Source of the DNA: Candidatus Saccharimonadota bacterium
Lineage (GTDB): Bacteria; Patescibacteriota; Gracilibacteria; BD1-5; UBA2023
Direction of reading: 5' to 3'
Assembly (NCBI GenBank): GCA_963706795.1
Contig: OY970170.1
Span: 1,110,001 to 1,142,000 of the forward strand
DNA length: 32,000 nt
Below, in pieces: positions 693 to 31,616 of the stretch. Positions within the stretch are counted from its first letter, which is position 1. The number at the start of each line of letters is the position of its first letter. The position numbers and the translations under genes were made by a program. The notes under the pieces were generated by a model, which had not been told where the DNA came from, did no database searches, and saw nothing but the letters and a program-made list of their open reading frames with translations.

Positions 693-3137
693 ATGAAACT
701 TCCGCTTTCATGGATCGGCGTTTTTGCGTCGGTTGAAAATCCTCTTGCCACGCATGGCGCTAAAGAACTCGCGCATATCTACTCGACCCATACTTCCGAA
801 ATCGAAGGCTATGAAGCATTTGGCGACTACGATAAAGTGGTTGTTGGTCGCGTTATTTCGACTGAGCGACATCCCGAATCCACCAAACTCTGGATCACAA
901 AAGTGGATCTTGGAAAGCATGGTGAAGAGACGATTTTGACCGGAGCTCAAAATATTCCTGATGCAAAATACGTGCCAGTTGCAATGGTGGGCGCAGCACT
1001 TTCACCAGATTTTGTTATTACAGAGCGCAAAATGGCTGGCATGATCAGCCGTGGAATGATCTGTGGTGCCGACGAAATCGGACTCTCAAAGCAGGTGTCT
1101 ACAGGTATCATGATCCTCGAAGAATTCTTTGAAGAATCTATTCTTGCCAAGCAGCTTGGTGAAAATCTCTTTGATCTCGAAGTTGCGATCCCTGATATCG
1201 CAGGTGGGTCAAAGATGATCAAAATCAGCGGTACCGGATTTGAAATCGACAACAAGAGCGTGACTAACCGCCCCGATCTCTTTGGAATCCTGGGTCATGC
1301 ACGCGAATTTGCAACTCTCTTTGATCTCGAATTCACGGCACCAAAATACCCACTTGAAGCCCTTCCTGCTGGTAATCTGCCAACCGAAGTACTCTCTAAA
1401 AATGTGCTCTCGTACCATCTTATGAAGATTGAAGGGGTTACGCCGAAGCCTTCACCGCTTGGAATTTCTCTCATGCTTGAGCAGAGTGGACATCAGACTC
1501 GACTTGATCTTGTGGATATCACGAACTACCTCATGACCGAGCTTGGTCAGCCAATGCACGTATTTGATGCGGATAAGGTCGATGGTCACATCATTGTTCG
1601 TCAGGCCCAAAAAGGCGAGACACTCGTAGCACTCGACGGTAAAACCTATACATTCGAATCATCTGATCTTGTGATCGCAGATCAAAAAAAGGTTCTTGCG
1701 ATTGCCGGTGTTATGGGCGGGATGGATTCTGGAGTTACAGAATCTACACAAAATATCTATTTTGAATCCGCAGTCTTCGATCCTACTGCGATTCGTCTCA
1801 CAGCACAGAGACTCGCTATTCGTACGGATGCCTCAACTCGCTACGAAAAATCGCTCGATCCAATGATGAGCAAACAGGCACTCGCTCGAGCAATTCAGTT
1901 GATGACATTTTTGGGTCAAAAAAGTACGATTTCTGGCACTTCCTACTATCTCGACGAAACCCGAGTAAAAAAGATTGAGCTTACAGTAGCCGTAGAGTTC
2001 ATCCGTAATAAACTCTGAAAAGACATCTCAGAAACTGAGATGATCCATACTCTCACTAAGCTCGGATTTGATCCGAAGCTCTCGAATGGTGTTATTGCAG
2101 TTACTGTTCCTTCATGGCGAGCGACAAAGGATATCTCACTCAATGAGGATATCGTCGAGGAAATCGGACGTATCCATGGATATGATGAGATCGATGAGCG
2201 ACCAATTCCAGGACTCTTTGATATTTCGAAGCGCAATTACTGGACTGAATTCCGTGCCATCACCCAGGATTATTTTGCGGGCAAGGCCCTCTACGAAGCC
2301 TTCAACTATTCATTTTCTAATGAAGCGAAGGATCGAGGAATTCTCATTGAAAACTTCGATGATGCGGTGCGTATAAAAAATGCAGTGAGTGAAGAATTTA
2401 CGCTCATGCGTCGATTTATGGCACCACTTCTCCTTATTAATGCTCGAGAAAACCGTAAGCAGTCTCAAAAATTCGGATTTTTCGAAATCGCAAAAATCCA
2501 TACGAAACATGCAGAGAATGATTTTTCGGAGAGCAAAAGAGTTGCTGGAATTTTGATTGGTTCGGATATCCAAGATCTCAGAAATCTCATCGATGGATAT
2601 TTTGCGCAGACTACTTCTGCTGATCTTGCTTGGAAAATAGAGCAGGGTGTCACGGATACGACTCCGTATTTTCATCCAAATAAATCAGGTCGCTACATGC
2701 TAGGTGATGACTGTATTGCGACATTTGGATATATTCATCCGCGTGTCCTCACTAACTTTGATCTCACTGGTGAAGAAGTTGTATTCTTTGATATCGACGC
2801 CGAAAAACTTGCTGCACTTGCGCGCAAAAAATCGGTTGCGTATCGCGAACCTTCAAAATTCCCAAGCATTTCGCGTGAACTGAATTTTGTTCTTCCTGAT
2901 CGTGAAAACACTGGAAATATTGCCCGCGCGATAGCCGCTGTTGATCCTCGCATCTCTTCACCAAAAGTTGTTGATACCTATATAGATGAGACAAAAGTGG
3001 GGGTTGGCAAAAAATCTGTAACCTTCTCATTTATGATCGAAGATCGTACAAAAACGATCACCGATGAAGAAGCAGGGGAGATCCAATCACGTGTTATTTC
3101 TGGACTCGCAGAAAAGGGATATATGCTTCGTAGCTAA
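693..3137 (+). CDS. pheT: phenylalanine--tRNA ligase beta subunit, 814 aa
   Basis: Track ORFs 693-2018 and 2040-3137 are in the same frame and joined through TGA 2019-2021 (IRNKL-G-KDISETEMIHTLTKLGF, B5-domain context). N-terminal tRNA-binding domain (MKLPLSWI...HPESTKLWITKVDLG), B3/4 region and C-terminal anticodon-binding-like domain. Confidence 0.93.
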
Positions 3138-8097: not shown

Positions 8098-9639
8098 ATG
8101 AAATTTTTAAAAAAATCCGCTTTCCTTCTTGGGATTTTGTTTGTGCTTTTTCCGTGCTCGATTTTTGCGCATCCGCTCGATATTTCTTCGTCGACTCTCA
8201 CTCTTCATGATCAGGAAATTGACGGGATAACCTATCTGCATCCAAGCGAAGTTGAGGCGATTTTGGGACGCAGGGGATTGTCGATGCGAGCTCTTACGTA
8301 TGGGGATTATTATACGTACAAACAATATCTTTTTGATTATTTGATCACAAAAGTCCGTATTCAGTCATGAGATGCGAGTTGTACGCTGAGTAATTTTTCG
8401 ACGACGGATTTGGGGGTCGATGAAATCTTTACGTCAGGTTTTCCGGTCCGATATCGCGTTAAGTGTCCAGCGAAGATTGATGGCTTCTCGTTGCATGTTG
8501 AGATTTTTAGTGAGCTTCCACTGCAGACAAATCGCGTACTGTTATATGATGGCAAAACAGGGAATACTATTCTCTATAAGGTCTTTACGGCGAAGCAGAC
8601 CGAGTATGTCTATACACCAGGGGCACAGACTAAATTGGTAGATACTGATCATGATAGTCTCTCAGACGAAGAAGAAAAACTCTATCGAACCGATCCCACA
8701 AAAACCGACACCGACGGGGATTTTTATACTGACTACGAAGAAGTTATGTCCGGTTGGAATCCGCTCTCTAAAAGTCCATCACCATGACAGAATCTTCGTA
8801 TTGCGCCTTCAGATAAACCCTTCTCGCTTCCGACGAATATAACGCAGTCATGAGACGGAATGGCACCTGGCTCATATGAGCAAAATACTGATGCATGATC
8901 CGGTGGGACTCTTACGCTCGCGAGTTCGGATACCACGCTCTTTACACTCTTTAAAAAGATCCTTGGGCAAATAGACGGACTTCGTAGTGGGAAGGCTGAT
9001 ACACAGGTTGTCTTTTTTATTTTGGCACTTTTGGTAATGCTTGGCTTTTTACATGCGCTCGGGCCTGGCCACTCGAAGGGATTTTTGGTTGGATATATTT
9101 TGGCGGAATGAGCGAGTGTCGGATCAAGTCTTATGTATGCTCTGATCTTTACACTCATTCATCTCGCTGATATCGTGATTATTACGCTTCTCGCGAAGTT
9201 CGCATTTGCGTATTTTGATCCGACACAGTTTTTGGAACAGATCGAATTTTTTGGAGCGCTGGGGCTTTTGTGTCTGTCGCTTGTACTTTTTTTTGCAGCA
9301 GTAAGGCTTATTCGGAAGCAAAAAAAGATTGGACTCGAGCGAACGAAGCCTTCTAAAAAGGGACTCTGGATCGCATTTTTTGCAGGATTGGCGCCCTGTA
9401 CTTTTGCATGGAGTATTGTGCTTGTACTCTTTGCTATTGGGCAGATGCAGTACGCGTTGCCTTTTTTGCTCGCGCTGTGAACGGGTGTCTTTTTGTGTCT
9501 CGGAACTCTTGCACTCATCACACATAAAGTCCGAGATCGGATTTACGGACTCAATGGCAGTATTGCGTATTATTCGCCGCTTGTTTCGTCGGTTTTTATT
9601 TTTACACTTTCGGTATTTTTCTTGATACGATTCCTCTAG
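8098..9639 (+). CDS. NicO/RcnA-like nickel/cobalt transporter fused to an N-terminal extracytoplasmic domain with thrombospondin-type-3-like Asp-rich repeats, 513 aa
   Basis: One frame unites track ORFs 8065-8370, 8410-8787 and 9133-9480 through 6 TGAs. Signal peptide MKFLKKSAFLLGILFVLFPCSIFA. Asp-rich stretch DTDHDSLSDEEEKLYRTDPTKTDTDGDFYTDYEE. NicO signature LHALGPGHSKGF followed by multiple TM helices. TAG 9637-9639. Confidence 0.7.
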
Positions 9640-9692: not shown

Positions 9693-12600
9693 ATGCATAT
9701 CCTTCTCAAAAAAGTAGTCGCTCTCACTTCTGTAACTACGATTTTGTTTGCCTCTGTAGTGCCTACTACACTGGCGGTATCGACTAACAATCTAGGTACG
9801 CCTTGGACTCGCGAGAAGGCTGAGCATCTCGCTCGAAAAGTGCTCTTCGCACCTATCAGCTCCAAGATCGATCAACTCTATATGGCAGGATCAGCAGATG
9901 CGGCAGTTGCCCTGCTTTTCCCTGATGCCAATGGCCCTGATCGAACTGGCTATAATGCTGAGGTGACAGCTCTCACAGGAGGTGCATTTAATTGGTGAGA
10001 TGGAAGCGATATGAATCGTCTCTATCAAATGAGATATGCCCGTGATCCATACGAAGCAAAAGTTAAGCTCTTCTCCCTTTTTGAGGATATTTTTTCGGTA
10101 AATCAGTCTGATAAAATCAGCTATAAAGATATCAAGGACCAACAGGATTTGCTCTATGCAAACACGCTTGGCAACTACAAGAGCATGATTAAGCATGTGC
10201 TCTACAATAATGGATCAGTAGGGGATTATGCCGAATGAAAATTCCTCGATCTCCTTGATCAAACAGACAAAAAAAATCCAAATGAAAACTACGGTCGCGA
10301 GCTCCTCCAGCTCTTTATGATGGGTGAATACAAGATGGGCGACTCCAAGGACAATGGAGATCCACGTAACTACGAAGAATCCGACGTCGCCTCAATCGCA
10401 AGAATCCTCACGGGTTTTAAGTCCGATGCCATGACGCACGTTGTAAGTTATGATTCAAATAATCACAATACTTCTACGGGGATCGTATTCCTCTCGGGTT
10501 CATTTTTAGCAAATGAGACATTCCCATTTGTTTCGGCATCAGGTACGCTCGATCTTGGTGCAATGCAGACTCCGATTAGTGGGAATAATGGTCTCGCTGA
10601 CAACACAATCGACTATATTTTTGCGAAGCGAGCAGATGCGATTGCACTCTTTTTAGCTGATCGAATCTACCGTTTTTATGCCTATGACAAGCCAACGCGC
10701 CCTGAGCTCGATGCGCTTGCGAATACCATCCGCACAAACAACTTTGATATTCTTCCTTCTGTTAAGACATTCCTGGCATCGGACATGATGTATTCGGATG
10801 CGAGTATGAATAGTATCACCTACAAAAACCCGCTCGAACTCATGATCGGGACTATCAAGCTCATCCATACCAATTCTCCAAATGCGATTGATCCCATGAT
10901 CCTCGATCAGGATCTGCTTCGTCGTATGAACTGGACTCCATATTTTGCCTGAAGTGTATTCGGACGTGAAGGATTTGATGAGAATGCGAAGTGGTTCTCA
11001 ACCTATACACAAAATCAGTGGATCAGCTATACGAGTCGTATTGCCTACGGTACGCAGACTGGCTCATATTTACTCTCTGATCTGCTTCCATATACCAATA
11101 CAGGAGTCACAAGTCTCTTGGATATCGCCTCAGGAACTGGTAACACGTTTACAGGAAGTATTGCGGTATCGAGTGGATCGCTCACAGTTCCAGCAACGGG
11201 AAGTGGTGCATCAGGATCAGTAAATATGTCGGTGAGTGCTACTAATTTCTCAGTTCCTAATCTCAACCTCGCAACTTCATCGGGTACACTCAATATCTTT
11301 GTTGGGCAATACGATCCAATTGGGATGCAGGTGCTCATTTCTTCGGGATCACTTGGAACAGGAACGGGCGCAATTCCAGTGCTCTCAGGTGCACTGACAC
11401 TCTCGGCTGCGAACCTCTCTCGTGAGATCACTCCAAATGAGATGTATGGCTTTCTTGAAACAAAACTCCTCTCTGGTCGACCACTTCCGAGTGATGTAAA
11501 GACTGGGATGACGGATTTTCTTCTTAAAGATGGAGACAACAAACCTATCCTTTTTAAACCGTCGACTACTGCGTATCAAACCACCAAGATCCGTTCGATC
11601 GTTGCCATGTTTTTGTCGCAGCCAGAATATGTACTGAACATGGGCTATGACCAGACCACAACCGCCGAAAACCTTGCACAGTCCGTACTGACGAATGCGA
11701 CTGGTAAGATTCTCTTCGTAGAGCTTGGTGGAGGATATGACTGGCTCCATGGTGTAATCCCAAAGGCTGAATATCAGGACTATATTGCGAAGCGAACAAC
11801 TGCCTCAGGAAGTAGCATCGTAATTGATAATTCTCACGTTGCTGATCTCTGAGATTTTTATCTCAATAATGCTCTGGCATATGGAAGTGGAGGAATAGTT
11901 CCTTCCTTTAAATCGCTCTTTGATTCGGGGAATCTCAGGATTTTTAATCGAGTAGGAACACCAAATCACTCGCGTGACCACGATCAGGCTCAAAAGCAGA
12001 TTGCTTCGTATGGCAGTACGACTCTCGATGATGCGGATGGAGTATTTGGACAGCTTGTCCGATATGAGCCAACATCGGAGTCAACCATCTCACTCTCAGG
12101 GCGTCGTCCAAATGTCTTCCGTGGTGGTCGATATATCAATATTGGACCGAGTGGAGCGATCTTTTCAAATAGCTATCTCAGTCAAAAAGATAGAGATGCG
12201 ACATTTGTGGCACTGCGAACTATTATGCAGGCACGTACCTATCCTGAACGCACTGGCGATCTCTTTAAGGCAGCAATCCGTGTTGACGAAATCGCGCGAC
12301 TCTCCAAAAATGGCGGAGGTCCTGATGGTGCGGGATATGGGAATATCAATAATCTCAAATTCCTCAGAACACTTCTCACAAATAATGTCGGGAAGGCGTT
12401 CTACATGCAAGCAGATGGAGGATATGATACGCACTCGAATCAGCTCGCACCGCAATCCAATTTTGATCCGATGAATATTCCAAAGGATCTCAATTACAAT
12501 GTCTGAAAAGTAGCCGAAAACCTCACGACATTCTTTAATGATGTAAAAGCCACTCAGAATATTACCATCATCATGTTCTCTGAGTTTGGTCGTACCATTA

Positions 12601-15041
12601 AGGTAAATGGCGACCTCGGAACTGACCATGGTGAAGGAGGTGGTATGTTTGTGCTCTCCAATAATACATCGCTTCTCTCGTCACTTTCGAGTAAAGTCTA
12701 TGGAAATATCTCCCTCCGAAATGCAAAAGATGACTGGCTCGGAGTCGGTATCGATTACCGATCTGTTTACGGAAAAATCTATAAGGCACTCTACGGAGTG
12801 AGTGATACAGCGCATTTTGGCTCGATCAGTGATCTCTCTAAGGATGTGAGTACAACGCCCGCAAAGGTTGCATTCTATCGACCAGAATACCGCTCACTCA
12901 ATGACAATAATGTCCGCCTCAATATTAAATTTAAGGTAGAATCCAATAATTTCGACTCTGACAAGGCGGGTTATGTCCTCGCAAGCAGATCCAAAAATCC
13001 AAGTGACCCAAATAGTGTGCTTGAAAATATTAGTACTTGGGAACTCAATAATTACGCAACAAAACCAGATAGTCAGTATGACTTTTCTCGTGATTGGATA
13101 GGGGAGAAGACGACCTATAAATTTAATTATGACGTCTTTACCAACCAATATGCTGAGACGGCATATTCTGGTGCATTCCTCCTCCCAGATGTCTTGCCAG
13201 CAAACCAAAATGCTGTGAGCGGATCATGAAATGTTGTATTACGTAAATATGACAATCTCACGGTAAGTGGTACTGGTACTAACCTTGTTAACGGATCAAA
13301 TTCTGGTATCACTCTCACGAGTGCTACGGGTACAGGTATTCAGACAGTCACACTTCGCTCGACAGATGGCATCGAGATACAATCTACGGGTACTGGAAAA
13401 ACGCTCATTACGAGTCTCTCGAGTTCTTCGGGTGCGCTTAAATGGAATGGAGGATTTATCCTTGGTGAGTTCGTAGATCCTGTGCGATTTATCTCTCAAG
13501 ATGCAAAGACTCTTACTGGCAGTGTACCACTCTCTACCCTCACGATTGCAAAAATCGCTAAGGTTGGAGCAGATACTCTCGGTGTTGGAATGAATCTCTC
13601 ACGTCCTGTAAATCTTGCTATCCCAGGTCTTCAGGCAAACTCTGAGTATCGCGTGTATCGTAGCGAAGACGGGCTTACATGGACAGAAGTGGGGACCGGT
13701 TCAACAATGAAGGCGGATACAAATGGGAAGCTCCTCTTTCCAACAACATCGTTCTCATATTTTGCGGTTGTCTCGTCTACACCAGTAGTACCACCAACAT
13801 GTTCGATTACACCATCATCAACAAGTGTACCAAACGGTACGCAGATTGCACTTAATTGGTCGAGCTCAAATGCGGTCTCAGCAACACTCGCTCCAAATCT
13901 CGGAGCACAACAAGTAACTGGAACTCTCCAGGTAACTCCACCAAGCGACACTGGAACACTCTATGTCCTTTCGCTTGTCGGAAATGGAAGTAGTACTGGC
14001 TCCTGTCAGGCACTCGTTACTACCACTGGATCATCTGGCGGTGGCGGTGGTGGTGGAGGCGGCGGAGGTGGCGGTGGTGGAGGCGGAGGAGGAGGAGGAG
14101 GTTCCTCAGTCGTCATTGGCCCATTCACCAAGGACAATTGTCCACTCGGAGATACTTCGCCAAGCAACTATGATGGGAAGTGTGATGCGAAATGAACCCT
14201 GAGCTCTACTGGGGCGGTTACTACCACTCCGACTTCTCCCGTAACTACCAGCACAGGAATCACGAGTAATGATGTACTCTCTGGTAAAAAATGATTTATC
14301 CTGAATGGACAGCTCACAAGCGAGGGGAAGACAGCGCTTGAACCTGTCGTAAAGGCATATATCGATGCCGCGCTTCTCAAGTCGCAGACGAGCTCAATAA
14401 CACTTGATCGATCGCTTGCTCAGTCAATCCTCCAGATTAATAAACTCATTCGCAAAGCAAAAACGAAGAGTGAGAAAAATGCTCTCCTCTATATTCGTGG
14501 TAAGCTCTCTCTCGCACAAGCTCAAAACAAAGCGCCAAAGACTGAGACAAAACCACCTGCTGATATCCCAAATCGTACAGATCCGGTAGTGGTTAAAAAG
14601 CCAGAAAAGAAACCAGATCCAACTCCTGAGCCACCAAAGGTAGCGGTTACTCCGGTTACTACGCCGAAGCCAGTAGTAAAGCCGCCAGTCACACCAAAAC
14701 CTGATCCAGTTGTGGTAGTGCAGCCAAATCCAAATACTTCTGTGAGTTACGGACTACCGACTTATGCACTCAATTACACAAGTCAAGACTTTGCGAGTTA
14801 TGACTGGTCGAGCGATCGTAGATTTACGGCAAATATATTTGGACCGATCGATGCCAATATTGCCAAAATCCGCTCCGAAATTACTGCAAAATGAGGTCGC
14901 ACCACTCCGTATTACGAGTCGCTTCTTGCAGATATAAATGCTCGACTGAAAACAACGGATTCACAACGAGATAAAAAAATTCTCCTCTACATAAAGAGTG
15001 AAATCACTATACTCTACGAGCTTTCAAAAAGACCAAGGTAA
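9693..15041 (+). CDS. giant secreted protein, DUF1800 + DUF1501 (sulfatase-like) fusion with Ig-like/poly-Gly/Pro-rich C-terminal extension, 1782 aa
   Basis: Single frame with no TAA/TAG from 9693 to TAA 15039-15041. 9 in-frame TGAs (9996, 10236, 10950, 11850, 12504, 13227, 14193, 14292, 14892) unite 8 track ORFs. Signal peptide MHILLKKVVALTSVTTILFASVVPTTLAVS. DUF1800 motif NENYGRELLQLFMMG...EESDVASIARILTGF. DUF1501 motifs FVELGGGYDWLHG, ADGGYDTHSNQ and FSEFGRTIKVNGDLGTDHGEGGGMF. Confidence 0.8.
14037..14102 (+). repeat. in-frame run of 22 consecutive Gly codons (mixed GGC/GGT/GGA) inside the giant ORF
   Basis: Counted codon by codon in frame. It uses only GGN codons, never TGA. Confidence 0.9.
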
Positions 15042-15709
15042 TGCATATTGTATATTTGATTCCTCCTTCAGAATGAAAGCGCGACGGTTGAGCAATTGCT
15101 TGATCGTCGCGCTCTTTTGATCTGCCTCTCGCGCTCAAGATAGCGAAGCAAGCAACCGAAAAGGATCTCAAGTGTACTGGTCGTCGTTTTGCGGAAGCAA
15201 AAAATCTCAATCACAATATTGCTAAAAATCCTGTTTTGCCGGCGATAGAGCGATATGACGGAGTGATGTATGCTGGGATAGCATATGAGCTTTTTTCCTC
15301 TGAGAGCAGACAATATTTCCATGATTCTGTTTTTATTTTGTCGGGACTTTTTGGATTGCTTAAACCAATGGATTTGATTCCAAATTATAAGCTGCCGATC
15401 GAGGCGAGTGGCCTTGTGTCTTTTTGGAAGAACAAGATGACAAAGGCACTCAAAAACATGGAAGATGTGATCTTTGTAGATGTGCTTCCTCAGTCCTACC
15501 GCAAGATGATTGATTGGAAGAAAATCCCCAACTATGTCACTGTCGAATTTGTGGATGATAATGGCACAAAACTCGGTCATACTGTCAAAGCTACCAAGGG
15601 TAAGTGGCTGCACGAAATGATCCAAACATGAGCGAAAAATATCCAAGAACTTGATGGGATTTTTGATGCCGAACTCAATACACTTACCGTTCGACCATGA
15701 CAAAACTAA
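15041..15709 (+). CDS. yaaA: YaaA/DUF328 (UPF0246) peroxide-stress family protein, 222 aa
   Basis: ATG overlaps the giant ORF stop as TAATG. MHIVYLIPPSE-G-K (TGA 15074) matches my recollection of an 'LPPSEGK' N-terminal variant of the family. Also AIERYDGVMY, ILSGLFGLLKPMDLIPNYKL and KATKGKWLHEMI. 5 in-frame TGAs. The 232-aa track ORF 15068-15766(-) is antisense to it. Confidence 0.75.
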
Positions 15710-20543: not shown

Positions 20544-20618
20544 TGGCAGCCCCAGTAGGAATCGAACCTACCTCGCAGGATTTGGAGTCCTGAATTCTAG
20601 CCGATGAAATATGGGGCT
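20544..20618 (-). tRNA. trnW: tRNA-Trp, anticodon CCA, 75 nt with encoded 3' CCA
   Basis: Hand-folded cloverleaf: acceptor AGCCCCA/TGGGGCT, anticodon stem CAGGA/TCCTG with loop CTCCAAA, T arm GTAGG-TTCGATT-CCTAC, discriminator G, GG in the D-loop. The D-stem has one T-T mismatch. Confidence 0.85.
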
Positions 20619-27555: not shown

Positions 27556-28023
27556 TTATATCTCTGTGGCGAGAATTCCAAATTCTTTTTGAAGTGTCTG
27601 GAGGATATATTGCTCGTGTTCCCACATAATTTCGTATTCTTCCTCGGTTTCATGATCAAATCCTTGGAGATGGAGAAGTCCGTGCGTCAGGAGGCGGTAG
27701 ACTTCTTCGGTAGGCGTATGTCCAAAGGTTGTTGCCTGCTCGAGGATCTTGGTTTCAGAGAAGAGAATTTCGCCAAAAACCTCGTCCGGACGTATCACAT
27801 CAGCAGTTCCAAAATAATGAAACGAGAGCACATCTGTATTCGAATCAATCTCACGATAGGTCCGATTGAGTTCTCGCATGCGCTCGTCGGGTATTACTGC
27901 AACATTTACAATCCCCATCTGCTCTATTCCTGTGGTTTGTAAGAGTGCGTCAATGATGACGGTCATAACATCTTCCTCGAGTGGGAGATTGTTTGGGAAG
28001 TCGATTACTTGAAGTGAATACAT
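27556..28023 (-). CDS. ybeY: rRNA maturation endoribonuclease YbeY, 155 aa
   Basis: Zinc motif THGLLHLQGFDH. Start trimmed to ATG 28023, which overlaps the upstream TAA as TAATG. Confidence 0.9.
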   Translation of the reverse strand: MYSLQVIDFPNNLPLEEDVMTVIIDALLQTTGIEQMGIVNVAVIPDERMRELNRTYREIDSNTDVLSFHYFGTADVIRPDEVFGEILFSETKILEQATTFGHTPTEEVYRLLTHGLLHLQGFDHETEEEYEIMWEHEQYILQTLQKEFGILATEI

Positions 28024-30356
28024 TATTTGAAATCTACATTGTAATTTTGAAGTCCAGGCTGTTTGAGGAAAACTGGCTTCATTGCGCAATTTGCCGGTGT
28101 GGATTCGTAGTCGAATTTTATCTCCGAATTTTCGAGTACTTTAGTATTGGTTGTAAAATCTATACTCGTGTAATCTGGTTGACTGTCATCGGTTGTCACT
28201 GAGACATTTGCGTGTGATTTGAGTTTAGATCCTTTTGGTACGAGGAGTCGAACGTATTCGACATTTTCGCCGTTTCCTTGGACGAATAACTCATGCTCGT
28301 GTGTTTTGGGATCTATATTGTAGCTATAGAGCATGCGACGTATCATCTCACGTGTTCCAATATCAAAATTGTGCGAGGTTTTGAGGCTGAATGTATTAAG
28401 CATTGTACAGCCGGCGACTGACTTGGCAGTGAGCTCAAAATTGCGGTGTACATACCGATCAGATTTATTCCCTGAGAGTGAAGTAAATACTGGATATACA
28501 AAATTATCTCTTCGCCCCTTGTAGGCATCATCCGGTATAAATTTGTGGATGAATGTGTCGAGATCGCCATCTCGGTGGGCTACGAGGATTTCACCCGCTG
28601 CAACATTGCTCTCGAGTGCATCAAGATAACGCGTGTATTCGCCAGTTTCACGAAGCTTTGATTCGAATGCTTCAATAAATGTAAAAAGTATGTCTTTTGC
28701 GCTCGTTTTGCGATTGATTTGTCACTCAACAAGTACCGAGAGAATGAGTGAAAAATTATCACTCGTGACAGTTTCTTTAATACCAGGAACCGTTATCGGT
28801 CCAGTAATACTCAGGAGATCGGTTATGAAGCCCTGATTGATTGCGACGATACCATCGAGTGTTCCACCGCCAGATTTTTCGTACATGCGTGAGATCGTCT
28901 CAAAACTCTCCTTAAAATTTGGATAGTAGTTGGCATCACGCATTCCATAGACATCCGTGATCTTATCAATACCAGGTGGCGGCGTTTCTCCATATGGGAA
29001 GAGTCGCCAGTCATAAAAATAGATGTCCTTTTTTTCGTATGACTGTAATCGCCCCTTATAAAACACGAGTTCTACCGCGCTTCATGGAAATCCTCCATTC
29101 GCGCGAAGTTCGTCACGGTTTTGGTTGAGGATGAGATAGTGTTTTGGGGTTTTGTCACCAAGCAGTGCAAAAATCTCATTTTGGTGTGCGAGTGTGAAAT
29201 CGAGTGTGCGCTCTATACTCTCAAGGAAGTGTACAGCTTTTGTGAGTTTTTCTTCCTTTGCAGGATCTCCGAGATTTTGGATAGAGCTAAATTCTATGAC
29301 AGATTTTTTGAGGCTATCACGAATGATGCCAAGATTTTTTGCACGCGCCTCAAATATATCCGTGAGCGGAAGCAAATTTGCCGCTAAAAGCCGTGGATCC
29401 GTGTAGGTAAGTGCACTTCATGAATTGGTATGTACTCATGTAGCAAGCTCATTGCGAAGTGTATCGAGCTCAGCAAATGCCTCGAGTAAGGCCTTTCAGC
29501 CATGGATAGCATGGGCAGCATTATCGAGATTTTCGCTGCGTGCGACTCAGGCGCGGATGAGGATATCGAGTGGCAAAAAAAGAAGATCTGCCTTTTGGAA
29601 TTCGGTTTGAAGTGAGGCGATCTCGTTTGAAATTGCCACTGGATCCTTCATTTCTTTGAGCGCAATGAGACGGCTATATCCGTCCATAGTGATCGTTTTG
29701 ACGCTATTTGCTAGAAGCCCAAGAAGTACGATTGCTATAATCGCTCAGAGCGCGAACCCAGAGCTGACTTTGAGAACTTTTTTCCCATGTTTTCTGCGAA
29801 AACGTCTAATACGCCTAGAGAGAGGCAGATCGAGCGCATAAATATCCGGACGAAGCCGCTTAAGGTCATGAAGCTCCAGCGTGCGAACATCGACTGCCGT
29901 ATCTGGAAAATCTGGCAGAGCAGGGTAGAGGTCAATCACTGGTAAGCGCGGAGAGAACGCCTTCCTCGAAAATGACGAAAGAAGTGTCGGCGCAAAAACC
30001 TGTGATCCATAGAGATCAAAAAGTCTTGAAGTTGGATGATTTTTGACTGAGAGAGTGAGTTTTTGACTGAGATTTACAGGCACAAAAGGCTCGACTCGCA
30101 TGTCATTCCAAACCCTGTGAGGATTGTGATTGATCGCAATAGTCTCACGAAAAGGGAAATGTACCGTGACATCAATAATCGGAGGAATACCCGAATCAAT
30201 ACTGAGGTCATTTAAAAAACCAGCGGGTTCAATCGGTGGAAGTTCTTCGTCTAGCGTTTCCTCGTGCTCATCGTGGCCGTGTGCGTCATGCTCATTGTGG
30301 CCAGAGTGCTCATCGTGGGCGTCGTGACTTGCGTGATCGGAGTGATCGTGTGACAT
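28023..30356 (-). CDS. DUF4012 domain membrane protein with His/Asp/Glu-rich cytoplasmic N-terminus, 777 aa
   Basis: Track ORFs 29745-30395, 29082-29375, 28722-29066 and 28023-28403 share one frame and are joined by about 7 TGAs. N-terminus MSHDHSDHASHDAHDEHSGHNEHDAHGHDEHEE. One TM helix (GFAL-G-AIIAIVLLGLLANSV). DUF4012 signature LILNQNRDELRANGGFP-G-SAVEL. ATG 30356 preferred over the track's GTG at 30395. Confidence 0.78.
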
Positions 30357-30383
30357 CTCGCTTGCGCTTCGGGGGTGACTTTT

Positions 30384-30401
30384 TATACTGTGCACAGTAT
30401 A
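30384..30401. promoter_or_regulatory. 18-bp perfect palindrome TATACTGTGCACAGTATA in the divergent promoter region (candidate operator)
   Basis: Checked base by base. It lies in the 72-bp gap between ATG 30356(-) and ATG 30429(+), and overlaps a TTGCGC-16 nt-TATACT promoter-like pair for the plus-strand gene. Confidence 0.5.
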
Positions 30402-30428
30402 TATACGCCGTTCACTTTTCGAAATTCA

Positions 30429-31616
30429 ATGCAGAAAAATACTTTTACGTGTCCACACTGTGGCGGAGCGATTGATCTCGGTCAGATCGAAGAGCATCAA
30501 ATTGCGGAGCGGCTCAAGGAGCGCGAGGCACAACTCGAAAAAGATATCAGCCTCAGAGCTAAAAACTATTACGAAAAACAAGCGACCGATGAGCGTAAAA
30601 AAATGGAAGAAGATCAAAAAAAATCTGCCATTGAACTCGAAATGCTCAAAAAACGCGACGAAGAAGCTCGTAAACGCGAGCTCGATTTTATGCGCGAGAA
30701 AGCCCTTCTCGAAAGCAAACAAAAGGATCTCGAGCTCGAAAAAGAACGCGCCATCATCGAGGCTCGAAAGGTCATGGAAGCTGAAATGGCTGAGCGAATC
30801 AAAAAAGAACAGGCTCTTCAATTTGAGCGCATCGAGCTCGATTTTGCTAAAAAGCTCCAAGAAAAAGACAAACAAATCGAGCAGGTCCAGCGCTCTCTCG
30901 AGGAGGTTAATCGCAAGGCGAGCCAAGGTTCTATGCAGATCCAGGGTGATATCCAAGAAGATGCTCTGAGAGCAATTCTCATACGTGAATTTCCGTCAGA
31001 TATTGTTGATGACGTCCCAACAGGAATTAAATGAGCGGACCTTATCCAGAGTGTACGCACGCAGTTTGGTCACCATGTCGGAGTAATCGCATGGGAATCC
31101 AAAAATACCAAGGCATGGAGTGATAGTTGGGTCGACAAGCTCAAAGAAGATCGTCTCCGCGTCAATGCTGGAGTATCAGTGATTGTCTCAAGTGTATTAC
31201 CCGAATGAGTCAATCACTTTGGTCTCTACCGTGATATTTGGGTCACAGAATGGCACTATGTTCTTCCACTGACTATTGCACTTCGTGAACAGATGATCAG
31301 CATGGATCATTTGCGTAATTCTCTCGCTGGCAAAGACGAAAAAATGGAGGTTCTCTATGCGTATCTCACATCTACCGAGTTTCGCGACAAGATTCAAAAT
31401 ATTGTAGAGGCATTTACATCTATGAAGGACCAACTCGACCAAGAAAAGCGCGCCATGGAGCGCATCTGGGCCAATCGCGAAAAACAACTCGATCGCGTCA
31501 TCAGTAATACTGCACGTCTCTACGGTGACATGCAAGGCCTCATCGGAGCCAAACTCCAAGGTGTCGGGTACTTTGAGCTCGGAGCTTGAGAAGATATTTC
31601 AGAAGAAGAAAAGTAA
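30429..31616 (+). CDS. DUF2130 family protein (N-terminal CxxC, long coiled coil, C-terminal PD-(D/E)xK-like domain), 395 aa
   Basis: MQKNTFTCPHCGG, then about 170 aa of E/K/R-rich coiled coil, then QGDIQEDALRAILIREFPSDIVDDVPTGIK-G-ADLIQSV...GVIAWESKNTKAWSDSWVDKLKEDR...VIVSSVLPE-G-VNHF...LYAYLTSTEFRDKI. TGAs at 31032, 31206 and 31587. TAA 31614-31616. Confidence 0.75.

Follow-up and report, generated by a model that had tools for sequence, protein, structure and literature searches.

A predicted Sec-exported fusion of DUF1800 and DUF1501 as a single-chain variant of an uncharacterised gene pair

The fusion gene and its genetic code

The window considered here is a stretch of 32,000 nt from a Candidatus Saccharimonadota bacterium that GTDB places in the Gracilibacteria (contig OY970170.1, positions 1,110,001 to 1,142,000 of the forward strand); all coordinates are positions in this window and refer to the (+) strand unless marked otherwise. 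At 9693..15041 it carries a gene of 5349 nt, with an ATG start, 1782 codons and a TAA stop, that encodes two domains of unknown function, DUF1800 and DUF1501, in one polypeptide. A preliminary description of the locus had claimed a single frame free of TAA and TAG across 5.3 kb, and indeed neither of these codons interrupts the frame, which includes exactly nine TGA codons, at residues 102, 182, 420, 720, 938, 1179, 1501, 1534 and 1734 (codon starts at nt 9996, 10236, 10950, 11850, 12504, 13227, 14193, 14292 and 14892), which are read as Gly. From the base composition, the chance of a 1782-codon frame without TAA or TAG is about 1e-31, and the nine in-frame TGA codons compare with a random expectation of about 32. 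Pfam searches of the table-25 translation place PF08811 (DUF1800) and PF07394 (DUF1501) above their curated cut-offs. Together with the housekeeping genes that require TGA to be Gly and the relatives of GatB described below, this upholds the earlier identification of a one-frame DUF1800-DUF1501 fusion in a code-25 Gracilibacteria-type genome.

Judged by comparison of coding sequences, the code-25 reading of the window (TGA = Gly, Gracilibacteria/SR1-type) is correct. The neighbouring genes for PheT, RelA/SpoT, TatD, Nth, EF-Ts, S2, GatB, MetAP and YbeY are intact only when TGA is translated. TGA falls on an invariant Gly of the E. coli-type enzyme in MetAP (kdGDivNID, FIVGk) and on an invariant Gly of three solved TatD-family structures in TatD (GETGLD, RGkxNEP), while both variable Gly positions of a Rossmann GxGxxG motif are filled by TGA; in none of these three comparisons is TGA ever aligned to Trp. 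Among code-25-translated homologs of the fusion protein, Gly occupies TGA site 182 in 9/9 sequences, site 720 in 8/10 and site 420 in 7/10. An earlier alignment of TGA sites to Gly versus Trp used database homologs translated in a mixture of code 4 and code 25 and is uninformative for that reason, so that the assignment is settled by the housekeeping genes and the code-25-only homologs. The only tRNA or Rfam match in the window is a tRNA-Trp with anticodon CCA (20544-20618, (-) strand), which reads UGG only and thus fits TGA not being Trp. The nearest named relatives of GatB are Candidatus Gracilibacteria, at about 70% identity.

The code also affects how this lineage is annotated. PheT (693-3137, (+) strand) forms one uninterrupted protein of 814 aa when the TGA at 2016-2018 is taken as Gly, and not otherwise; the table-11 listing of open reading frames (ORFs) splits it into 441 and 365 aa. 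Many public copies of the fusion family are translated in code 4 (one of them, P0059, contains 7.2% Trp and 0.8% Gly), and on Logan contigs of the same organism (loci L085 and L086) code-11 calls fragment MetAP, DUF4012 and other genes. The annotations and alignments of the lineage are therefore systematically distorted. Long ORFs antisense to the fusion gene, none of which matched a family, are by-products of a code with two stop codons.

Domain organisation of the protein

The protein begins with a Sec-type signal peptide (9693..9776, aa 1-28) comprising a KK n-region and a hydrophobic core, and ending in TLA before VS. It was assigned from sequence features, and homologs have N-termini of a common K-K...A-V-x-T-N type. 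This N-terminus, MHILLKKVVALTSVTTILFASVVPTTLA followed by VS, is the sole hydrophobic segment of the protein in 19-residue windows and carries no twin-arginine (RR) motif, in keeping with the Sec-type signal that had been placed ahead of the domains.

DUF1800 as a whole spans residues ~35-648. Its Pfam match (E-value (E)=1.4e-36, 127 bits against a cut-off of 26.1) covers aa 45-647 and profile positions 1-418 of 419. The N-terminal part (9795..11060, aa ~35-456), which is helical in an AlphaFold2 (AF2) model, holds the PNENY(A/G)RE..LF signature, and the C-terminal helices (11427..11636, aa ~579-648) end in SQPEYVL (642-648). Both sequences quoted previously as the DUF1800 motif were located, NENYGRELLQLFMMG at residues 197-211 and DVASIARILTGF at 231-242. 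The full signature (P-N-E-N-Y-A-R-E..L-F, D231, G241, P380 and G424) is conserved in at least 90% of fused sequences and in at least 80% of 71 standalone DUF1800 proteins. Between the two helical parts lies an all-β, Ser/Gly/Thr-rich segment (11061..11426, aa ~457-578) that the preliminary description had taken for the inter-domain linker. The Pfam span and the alignment of the 71 standalone DUF1800 proteins, which match on both flanks of the segment and stop where SQPEYVL stands, place it within DUF1800 instead. Since it has no counterpart in the standalone proteins or in a short fused relative (L009), it is a lineage-specific insertion and not a linker. It is found in about 80% of long-form homologs and forms β-strands in the AF2 model of a homolog, with the mean confidence (pLDDT) of 10-residue blocks mostly above 85. 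The true linker (11637..11705, aa 649-671) is only 23 residues long and occupies the place of the twin-arginine translocation (Tat) signal in standalone DUF1501; it contains neither an RR motif nor a TGA codon.

The DUF1501 domain (11706..12857, aa ~672-1055) was identified by Pfam, alignment and Foldseek. The PF07394 match (E=6e-9, 36-40 bits against a cut-off of 27) is partial, covering about 80 residues and profile positions 250-321 of 390. In tblastn searches, residues 8-374 of a 415-residue DUF1501 query align to many split loci. All four motifs that had been quoted for DUF1501 are present: GGGYDWLHG at 679-687, DGGYDTHSNQ at 908-917, SEFGRT at 963-968 and GTDHGEGGG at 976-984. Residues invariant in both the fused and 64 standalone DUF1501 sequences are G680-G681-x-D683, R701, H763, D912-T-H914, Q917, S-E964-F-G-R967, G-T-D978-H979-G, D1021 and R1023. 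Across residues 680-1026, 37 alignment columns are conserved in both groups, and 28 of the 37 hold the same residue. D683, R701, H763, D912/H914, E964/R967 and D978/H979 are strictly retained in the fused clade, whose overall identity is 30-60%.

An AF2 model of both domains of a collinear homolog (P0001, 60% identical) has a pLDDT of 88 and a predicted TM-score (pTM) of 0.82, which suggests that the two domains may form a fixed assembly. When this model is searched against the PDB with Foldseek, most of the top 50 matches, including ranks 1-13, are alkaline phosphatase (AP) superfamily enzymes. They comprise 3lxq, MCR-1/2, S1 sulfatases, alkaline phosphatases and BcsG, with 3lxq and the MCR-type enzymes on top. 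The DUF1800 helical half has no counterpart among the PDB matches listed, and the family profile matches no PDB sequence. On this structural evidence DUF1501 is probably an AP-superfamily enzyme, and its D, D-x-H and D-H-G motifs, taken with E964 and R967, form a pattern in agreement with a metal-dependent hydrolase or transferase of phospho- or sulfo-esters. The "sulfatase/alkaline-phosphatase-like fold" attributed to the domain earlier thus stands as far as the AP superfamily is concerned. "Sulfatase-like" is too specific, the C/S-x-P/A-x-R motif of formylglycine sulfatases being absent from residues 660-1085.

Additional modules do follow DUF1501, as had been noted, although they amount to about 700 residues and not about 600. 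A family-conserved β-sandwich module (12873..13181, aa ~1061-1163) corresponds to strands 1032-1134 of the homolog's AF2 model; small Fn3/ML-type Foldseek matches probably represent either this module or the DUF1800 insertion. Tandem all-β Ig/Fn3/PKD-like modules come next (13230..14027, aa 1180-1445), the last lying between Cys1370 and Cys1438. An AF2 model of the protein's own sequence in this region (pLDDT 79) matches adhesin, S-layer, Ig and Fn3 modules in Foldseek. A poly-Gly spacer of 22 residues (14037..14102) is written in mixed GGC, GGT and GGA codons, never TGA, and in homologs its position is taken by Gly/Ser-rich spacers that vary greatly in length. It precedes a KDxCPxGDxSPSxYDxxC motif (14130..14183, aa 1480-1497) that contains Cys1483 and Cys1497, is kept in about 88% of the family and is modelled by AF2 with low confidence. 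The protein has four Cys in all, in two pairs. The variable tail (14184..15038) consists of Ser/Thr-rich, helical, Pro/Lys-rich and again helical segments. Used as a query for homologs, it retrieved two short fragments and nothing else, which are probably members of the same family truncated under code 11. Pfam has no match to the insertion, C-terminal modules or tail, NCBIfam contains no model for the protein, and a self-BLAST revealed no repeated segments within it. In other members of the family, SH3b, SLH or cadherin-like domains are found at the C-terminus.

Fused and split relatives

A search of 5.8 billion clustered proteins recovered 63 homologs of 1,042-2,266 aa, most with both Pfam domains. 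The named ones belong to Gracilibacteria, Absconditabacterales and "Altimarinota" and are titled "DUF1800 family protein". The protein collection searched does not contain the exact sequence of the fusion protein. When 1.84 billion representatives were searched exhaustively, 68 matched at E<=1e-30, against 3,425 at E<=1e-3, which indicates that fused forms are rare beside their standalone relatives. The same exhaustive search also brought out shorter fusions, 860-1,085 aa in length, and one cluster of these is annotated as Patescibacteria. In a survey of GTDB genomes every code-25 locus is fused, and so is L009, an 887-aa protein of "Candidatus Levyibacteriota" that uses the standard code. Both domains of the closest relative, L001, are open even under table 11. 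Because L001 is open in this way and the standard-code L009 is fused, the fusion is independent of how TGA is read.

In a neighbour-joining tree of the DUF1501 domain with 50 bootstraps, all 81 fused sequences, long and short, form one clade that excludes every split-locus DUF1501 (50/50 bootstraps). The survey of Gracilibacteria that had been proposed to distinguish a conserved from a split arrangement thus finds the fusion conserved, in about 80 sequences of a single clade. Judged from these sequences, the fusion is a conserved family which includes standard-code Patescibacteria and is not peculiar to the source genome or to the altered code. The short fused Patescibacteria (L009, 887 aa; HEX9502719.1, 1085 aa) fall in the same clade as the long fusion. 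Like it, the short forms have an N-terminal Sec-type signal or anchor and a short junction without a Tat motif, whereas, unlike it, they use the standard code. L009 lacks the β insertion and, in contrast to the long fusion, terminates directly after DUF1501; the other short forms (860-1085 aa) are too short for the C-terminal stalk and tail. A further fused protein, P0156 (969 aa, from a metagenome in ENA), has a DUF1501 that groups with planctomycete and verrucomicrobial split genes, and could have arisen either from a second, independent fusion or from an error of sequencing or gene calling.

Six standard-code split loci (L016, L025, L031, L060, L063 and L070) have the two genes in the same frame with only TGA between DUF1800 and DUF1501; translated with code 25, they would appear fused. 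Their frequency is about that expected by chance (15/62 pairs are in the same frame). The idea that reassignment of the stop codon to Gly created the fusion was rejected, TGA-only junctions being at about chance level and standard-code Candidate Phyla Radiation (CPR) members lying in the fused clade.

Adjacent DUF1800 and DUF1501 genes, in the same order as in the fusion, occur at about 60 loci in at least eight phyla. These include Bacteroidota, Planctomycetota, Verrucomicrobiota, Chloroflexota, Acidobacteriota, Eremiobacterota, Cyanobacteria-related lineages and others. In nearly all of them the intergenic distance ranges from a short overlap to about 200 nt, and identity to the query is 21-31%. 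No conserved third gene was found near the roughly 60 loci. An RRxFL-type Tat signal is present on 63 of 66 split-locus DUF1501 proteins, and in 54 of 61 assessable DUF1800 genes the whole open frame preceding the conserved N-terminal motif is free of both RR motifs and hydrophobic stretches. Some standalone DUF1800 ORFs (L011, L017 and L018 among them) start with an MxRRxF(L/F)-like sequence without a hydrophobic core after it, possibly the remnant of a Tat n-region or an unusual form of one. The DUF1800 and DUF1501 families are expanded in planctomycetes and SAR202. The statement in the preliminary description that the two are usually adjacent genes in Planctomycetes and Verrucomicrobia agrees both with these loci and with the literature (PMC5122149). 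Co-operonic DUF1800 and DUF1501 and the Tat motif have been reported before (PMC5122149; PMC3542564), and both domains are described as functionally uncharacterised (PMC5122149; PMC6946804).

Around the fusion gene, an intrinsic-terminator-like hairpin (15078..15123) of 16 pairs, 9 of them G-C, with a T-run behind it, lies 37 nt past the stop codon. Directly upstream is a possible accessory gene (8098..9639) whose product has a signal peptide, bacterial TSP3 Ca-binding repeats and a NicO/RcnA-like metal-permease domain (HALGPGHSKG). A NicO-like homolog adjoins the fusion gene upstream in L001 and L002 and downstream in the divergent L006, and is not adjacent in L003, L004, L005 and L007. The neighbourhoods of fused homologs show no conservation beyond this partial linkage. 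That the permease might supply metal to an enzyme exported unfolded is speculation. Elsewhere in the window, at 28023-31076 on the (-) strand, lies a gene for a DUF4012 protein (PF13196, E=1e-22). The N-terminus of the protein, MSHDHSDHASHDAHDEHSGHNEHDAHGHDEHEE, is strikingly rich in His and Asp, and it is uncertain where in the long open frame translation really starts.

Proposed function and competing explanations

The fusion can be compared with three known systems. The DUF1800 (PF08811, COG5267)/DUF1501 (PF07394, COG4102) two-gene module of Planctomycetota, Bacteroidota, Proteobacteria and others has the same domains in the same order, and its invariant residues are kept in the fusion. The fusion differs in being one polypeptide, in having the 23-residue linker in place of the DUF1501 Tat signal and in carrying a Sec signal before DUF1800, which is normally signal-less. 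It also adds the β insertion of about 120 residues and some 700 C-terminal residues, and its nucleophile-region motif is altered. With AP-superfamily enzymes (3lxq, the phosphoethanolamine transferases MCR-1/EptA and BcsG, S1 sulfatases and E. coli alkaline phosphatase) DUF1501 has in common the α/β core fold, an Asp after the first strand, and D-x-H and D-H-G motifs of metal-ligand type in the expected order. In contrast to these enzymes, it shows only ~10% identity and TM-scores of 0.3-0.4, has no formylglycine motif and no PDB relative detectable by sequence, and is obligatorily associated with a large helical domain. The third comparison is with Tat hitchhikers. In hitchhiker export a signal-less subunit leaves the cell with its Tat-signal partner, as in HybOC and DmsAB. 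E. coli hydrogenase-2 (HybO/HybC) and DmsA/DmsB each consist of one Tat-signal subunit and a signal-less partner from the adjacent gene, both of them extracytoplasmic. The same arrangement is proposed here for the split pairs, whereas the fusion protein itself does not use Tat.

It is proposed, with moderate confidence, that the gene encodes a single Sec-exported chain that covalently joins the DUF1800-DUF1501 pair, the first being a co-exported partner and the second a metal-dependent enzyme, carried on a stalk. DUF1800 would be the obligate helical partner of the catalytic DUF1501 subunit, and in other phyla the two would leave the cell as a folded pair, carried by DUF1501's Tat signal. The CPR lineage would have lost that signal, joined the partners through the 23-residue linker and come to export the whole chain by one N-terminal Sec signal. 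The enzyme would act as a hydrolase or transferase on phospho- or sulfo-esters, and the β-sandwich stalk modules would hold it off the cell, towards an extracellular or host-envelope substrate. An extracytoplasmic location is favoured by the lone hydrophobic segment at the N-terminus, by the four Cys in two pairs and by the Ig/Fn3-like modules. A single Sec signal together with the covalent link would imply that metal is loaded after export. As DUF1800 is exported with DUF1501 in the fusion, it would act outside the cytoplasm, and a signal-less DUF1800 of a split system is accordingly expected to exit bound to its Tat-signal partner. The fusion was judged good Rosetta-stone evidence, as had been suggested, and indicates that DUF1800 and DUF1501 act together outside the cell. 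The signals of the split pairs combined with the Sec-exported fusion suggest a co-exported complex formed by Tat hitchhiking.

Several observations weigh against this proposal. The standalone "N-R-S-H-F" motif, in which the Ser beside the invariant His is a candidate nucleophile, is not found in the fused clade, where it has become "HSR(D/G/A)HD"; that Ser is replaced, and a conserved Ser (S760, nearly invariant) stands two residues N-terminal instead, so that catalysis may be altered or lost. The Foldseek matches are weak (best E=9e-4, TM to target 0.3-0.42, ~10% identity), the two-domain model and its search concern the homolog P0001 and not the fusion protein's own sequence, and the packing of the domains is read solely from the pTM of that model. 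Hitchhiking is deduced entirely from the asymmetry of signal peptides. Tat has been listed for freshwater Microgenomatia, Paceibacteria and Saccharimonadia, with Gracilibacteria not in the list (PMC9166423), and this omission is a weak basis for the absence of Tat from Gracilibacteria. NCBI taxonomy would moreover suggest that the Levyibacteriota source of L009 belongs to Microgenomatia, a class with Tat (PMC9166423), yet L009 is fused. The protein contains no known surface-anchor domain, and its tail has no LPXTG motif and no transmembrane segment. Finally, the full-text literature searched holds no function for DUF1800 or DUF1501 and no account of the fusion.

Cytoplasmic Tat chaperones (redox-enzyme maturation proteins) likewise lack a signal beside a Tat-substrate partner. 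DUF1800 of split systems could accordingly be a cytoplasmic maturation or Tat-proofreading chaperone, similar to TorD/DmsD, the CPR fusion being a secondary repurposing with little bearing on split systems. The largely helical DUF1800 model and the missing signal at 54 of 61 split loci, where the partner is a Tat substrate, are in line with such a role. It is nonetheless considered unlikely, because in about 80 fused proteins DUF1800 sits behind a Sec signal and is exported together with DUF1501. A signal-binding chaperone would be useless there, yet PNENYARE..LF and the other signature residues are invariant. At 450-550 aa DUF1800 is also far above the size of known Tat chaperones, and the pTM of the model points to a fixed two-domain assembly.

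The loss of the Ser adjoining the invariant His, which is D, G or A in the fused clade, has a second possible meaning, namely that the protein serves chiefly as an adhesin or a structural component of the surface, without catalysis, and that DUF1501 is an inactive scaffold in it. Long β-sandwich stalks and an inserted β module are typical of adhesins, and the SH3b, SLH or cadherin-like domains found at the C-terminus elsewhere in the family could be read in the same way. All other invariant residues of metal-ligand or substrate type are, however, strictly kept at 30-60% identity, which argues for selection on an active site, and the nearly invariant S760 could itself be the nucleophile; a mainly non-catalytic role is therefore regarded as rather improbable.

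The remaining two alternatives are given very little weight. DUF1501 family members are often loosely called "sulfatase-like", and the structures matched by fold include several S1 sulfatases. The domain is nevertheless most improbably a classical formylglycine (type I) sulfatase, as that motif is missing, D-T-H and T-D-H-G are nearer to two-metal sites of the AP/nucleotide pyrophosphatase/phosphodiesterase (NPP) type or those of phosphoethanolamine transferases, and the top fold matches are 3lxq and MCR-type transferases, not sulfatases. That the fusion is an artefact, with a TGA as a real stop or a frameshift or assembly error joining two genes, might be argued from the nine or more pieces into which the standard code breaks the frame and from the fragmented genes that public pipelines call on the organism's contigs; it is effectively refuted by the housekeeping genes' need for TGA = Gly, by homology that runs through every TGA, by the TGA-free linker, by the closest relative and the standard-code CPR relative, both fused without TGA read-through at the junction, and by the same architecture in ~80 independent assemblies.

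A broader picture can be drawn from the proposed Sec-exported enzyme, although only tentatively. The split pair may be a two-subunit AP-superfamily enzyme exported by Tat hitchhiking, which the CPR converted once into a single-chain, Sec-exported and stalk-mounted form, metallated outside the cell and perhaps aided by the NicO-like protein. Episymbiotic Gracilibacteria might employ such an enzyme to strip phospho- or sulfo-ester groups, or the head groups of lipids or polysaccharides, off host envelopes or environmental polymers. The host-interaction or nutrient-scavenging role raised in the preliminary description is plausible in view of the secreted multi-module architecture.

Fused sequences are already public as "DUF1800 family protein"; what is new is the recognition of the fusion as an undescribed variant of an uncharacterised gene pair. 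DUF1800 and DUF1501 are abundant, a single query returning 3,425 relatives at E<=1e-3, and the conserved fusion leads to three testable expectations about them: that the two proteins work as one unit, that DUF1800 is extracytoplasmic, predicting Tat hitchhiking of DUF1800 in split systems, and that the catalytic half is an AP-type metal enzyme and not a formylglycine sulfatase. The single-chain version is a convenient construct with which to express and assay the pair. For CPR biology, the family represents a conserved and very large secreted enzyme that is a candidate for nutrient acquisition or action on host surfaces by the small-genome Gracilibacteria.

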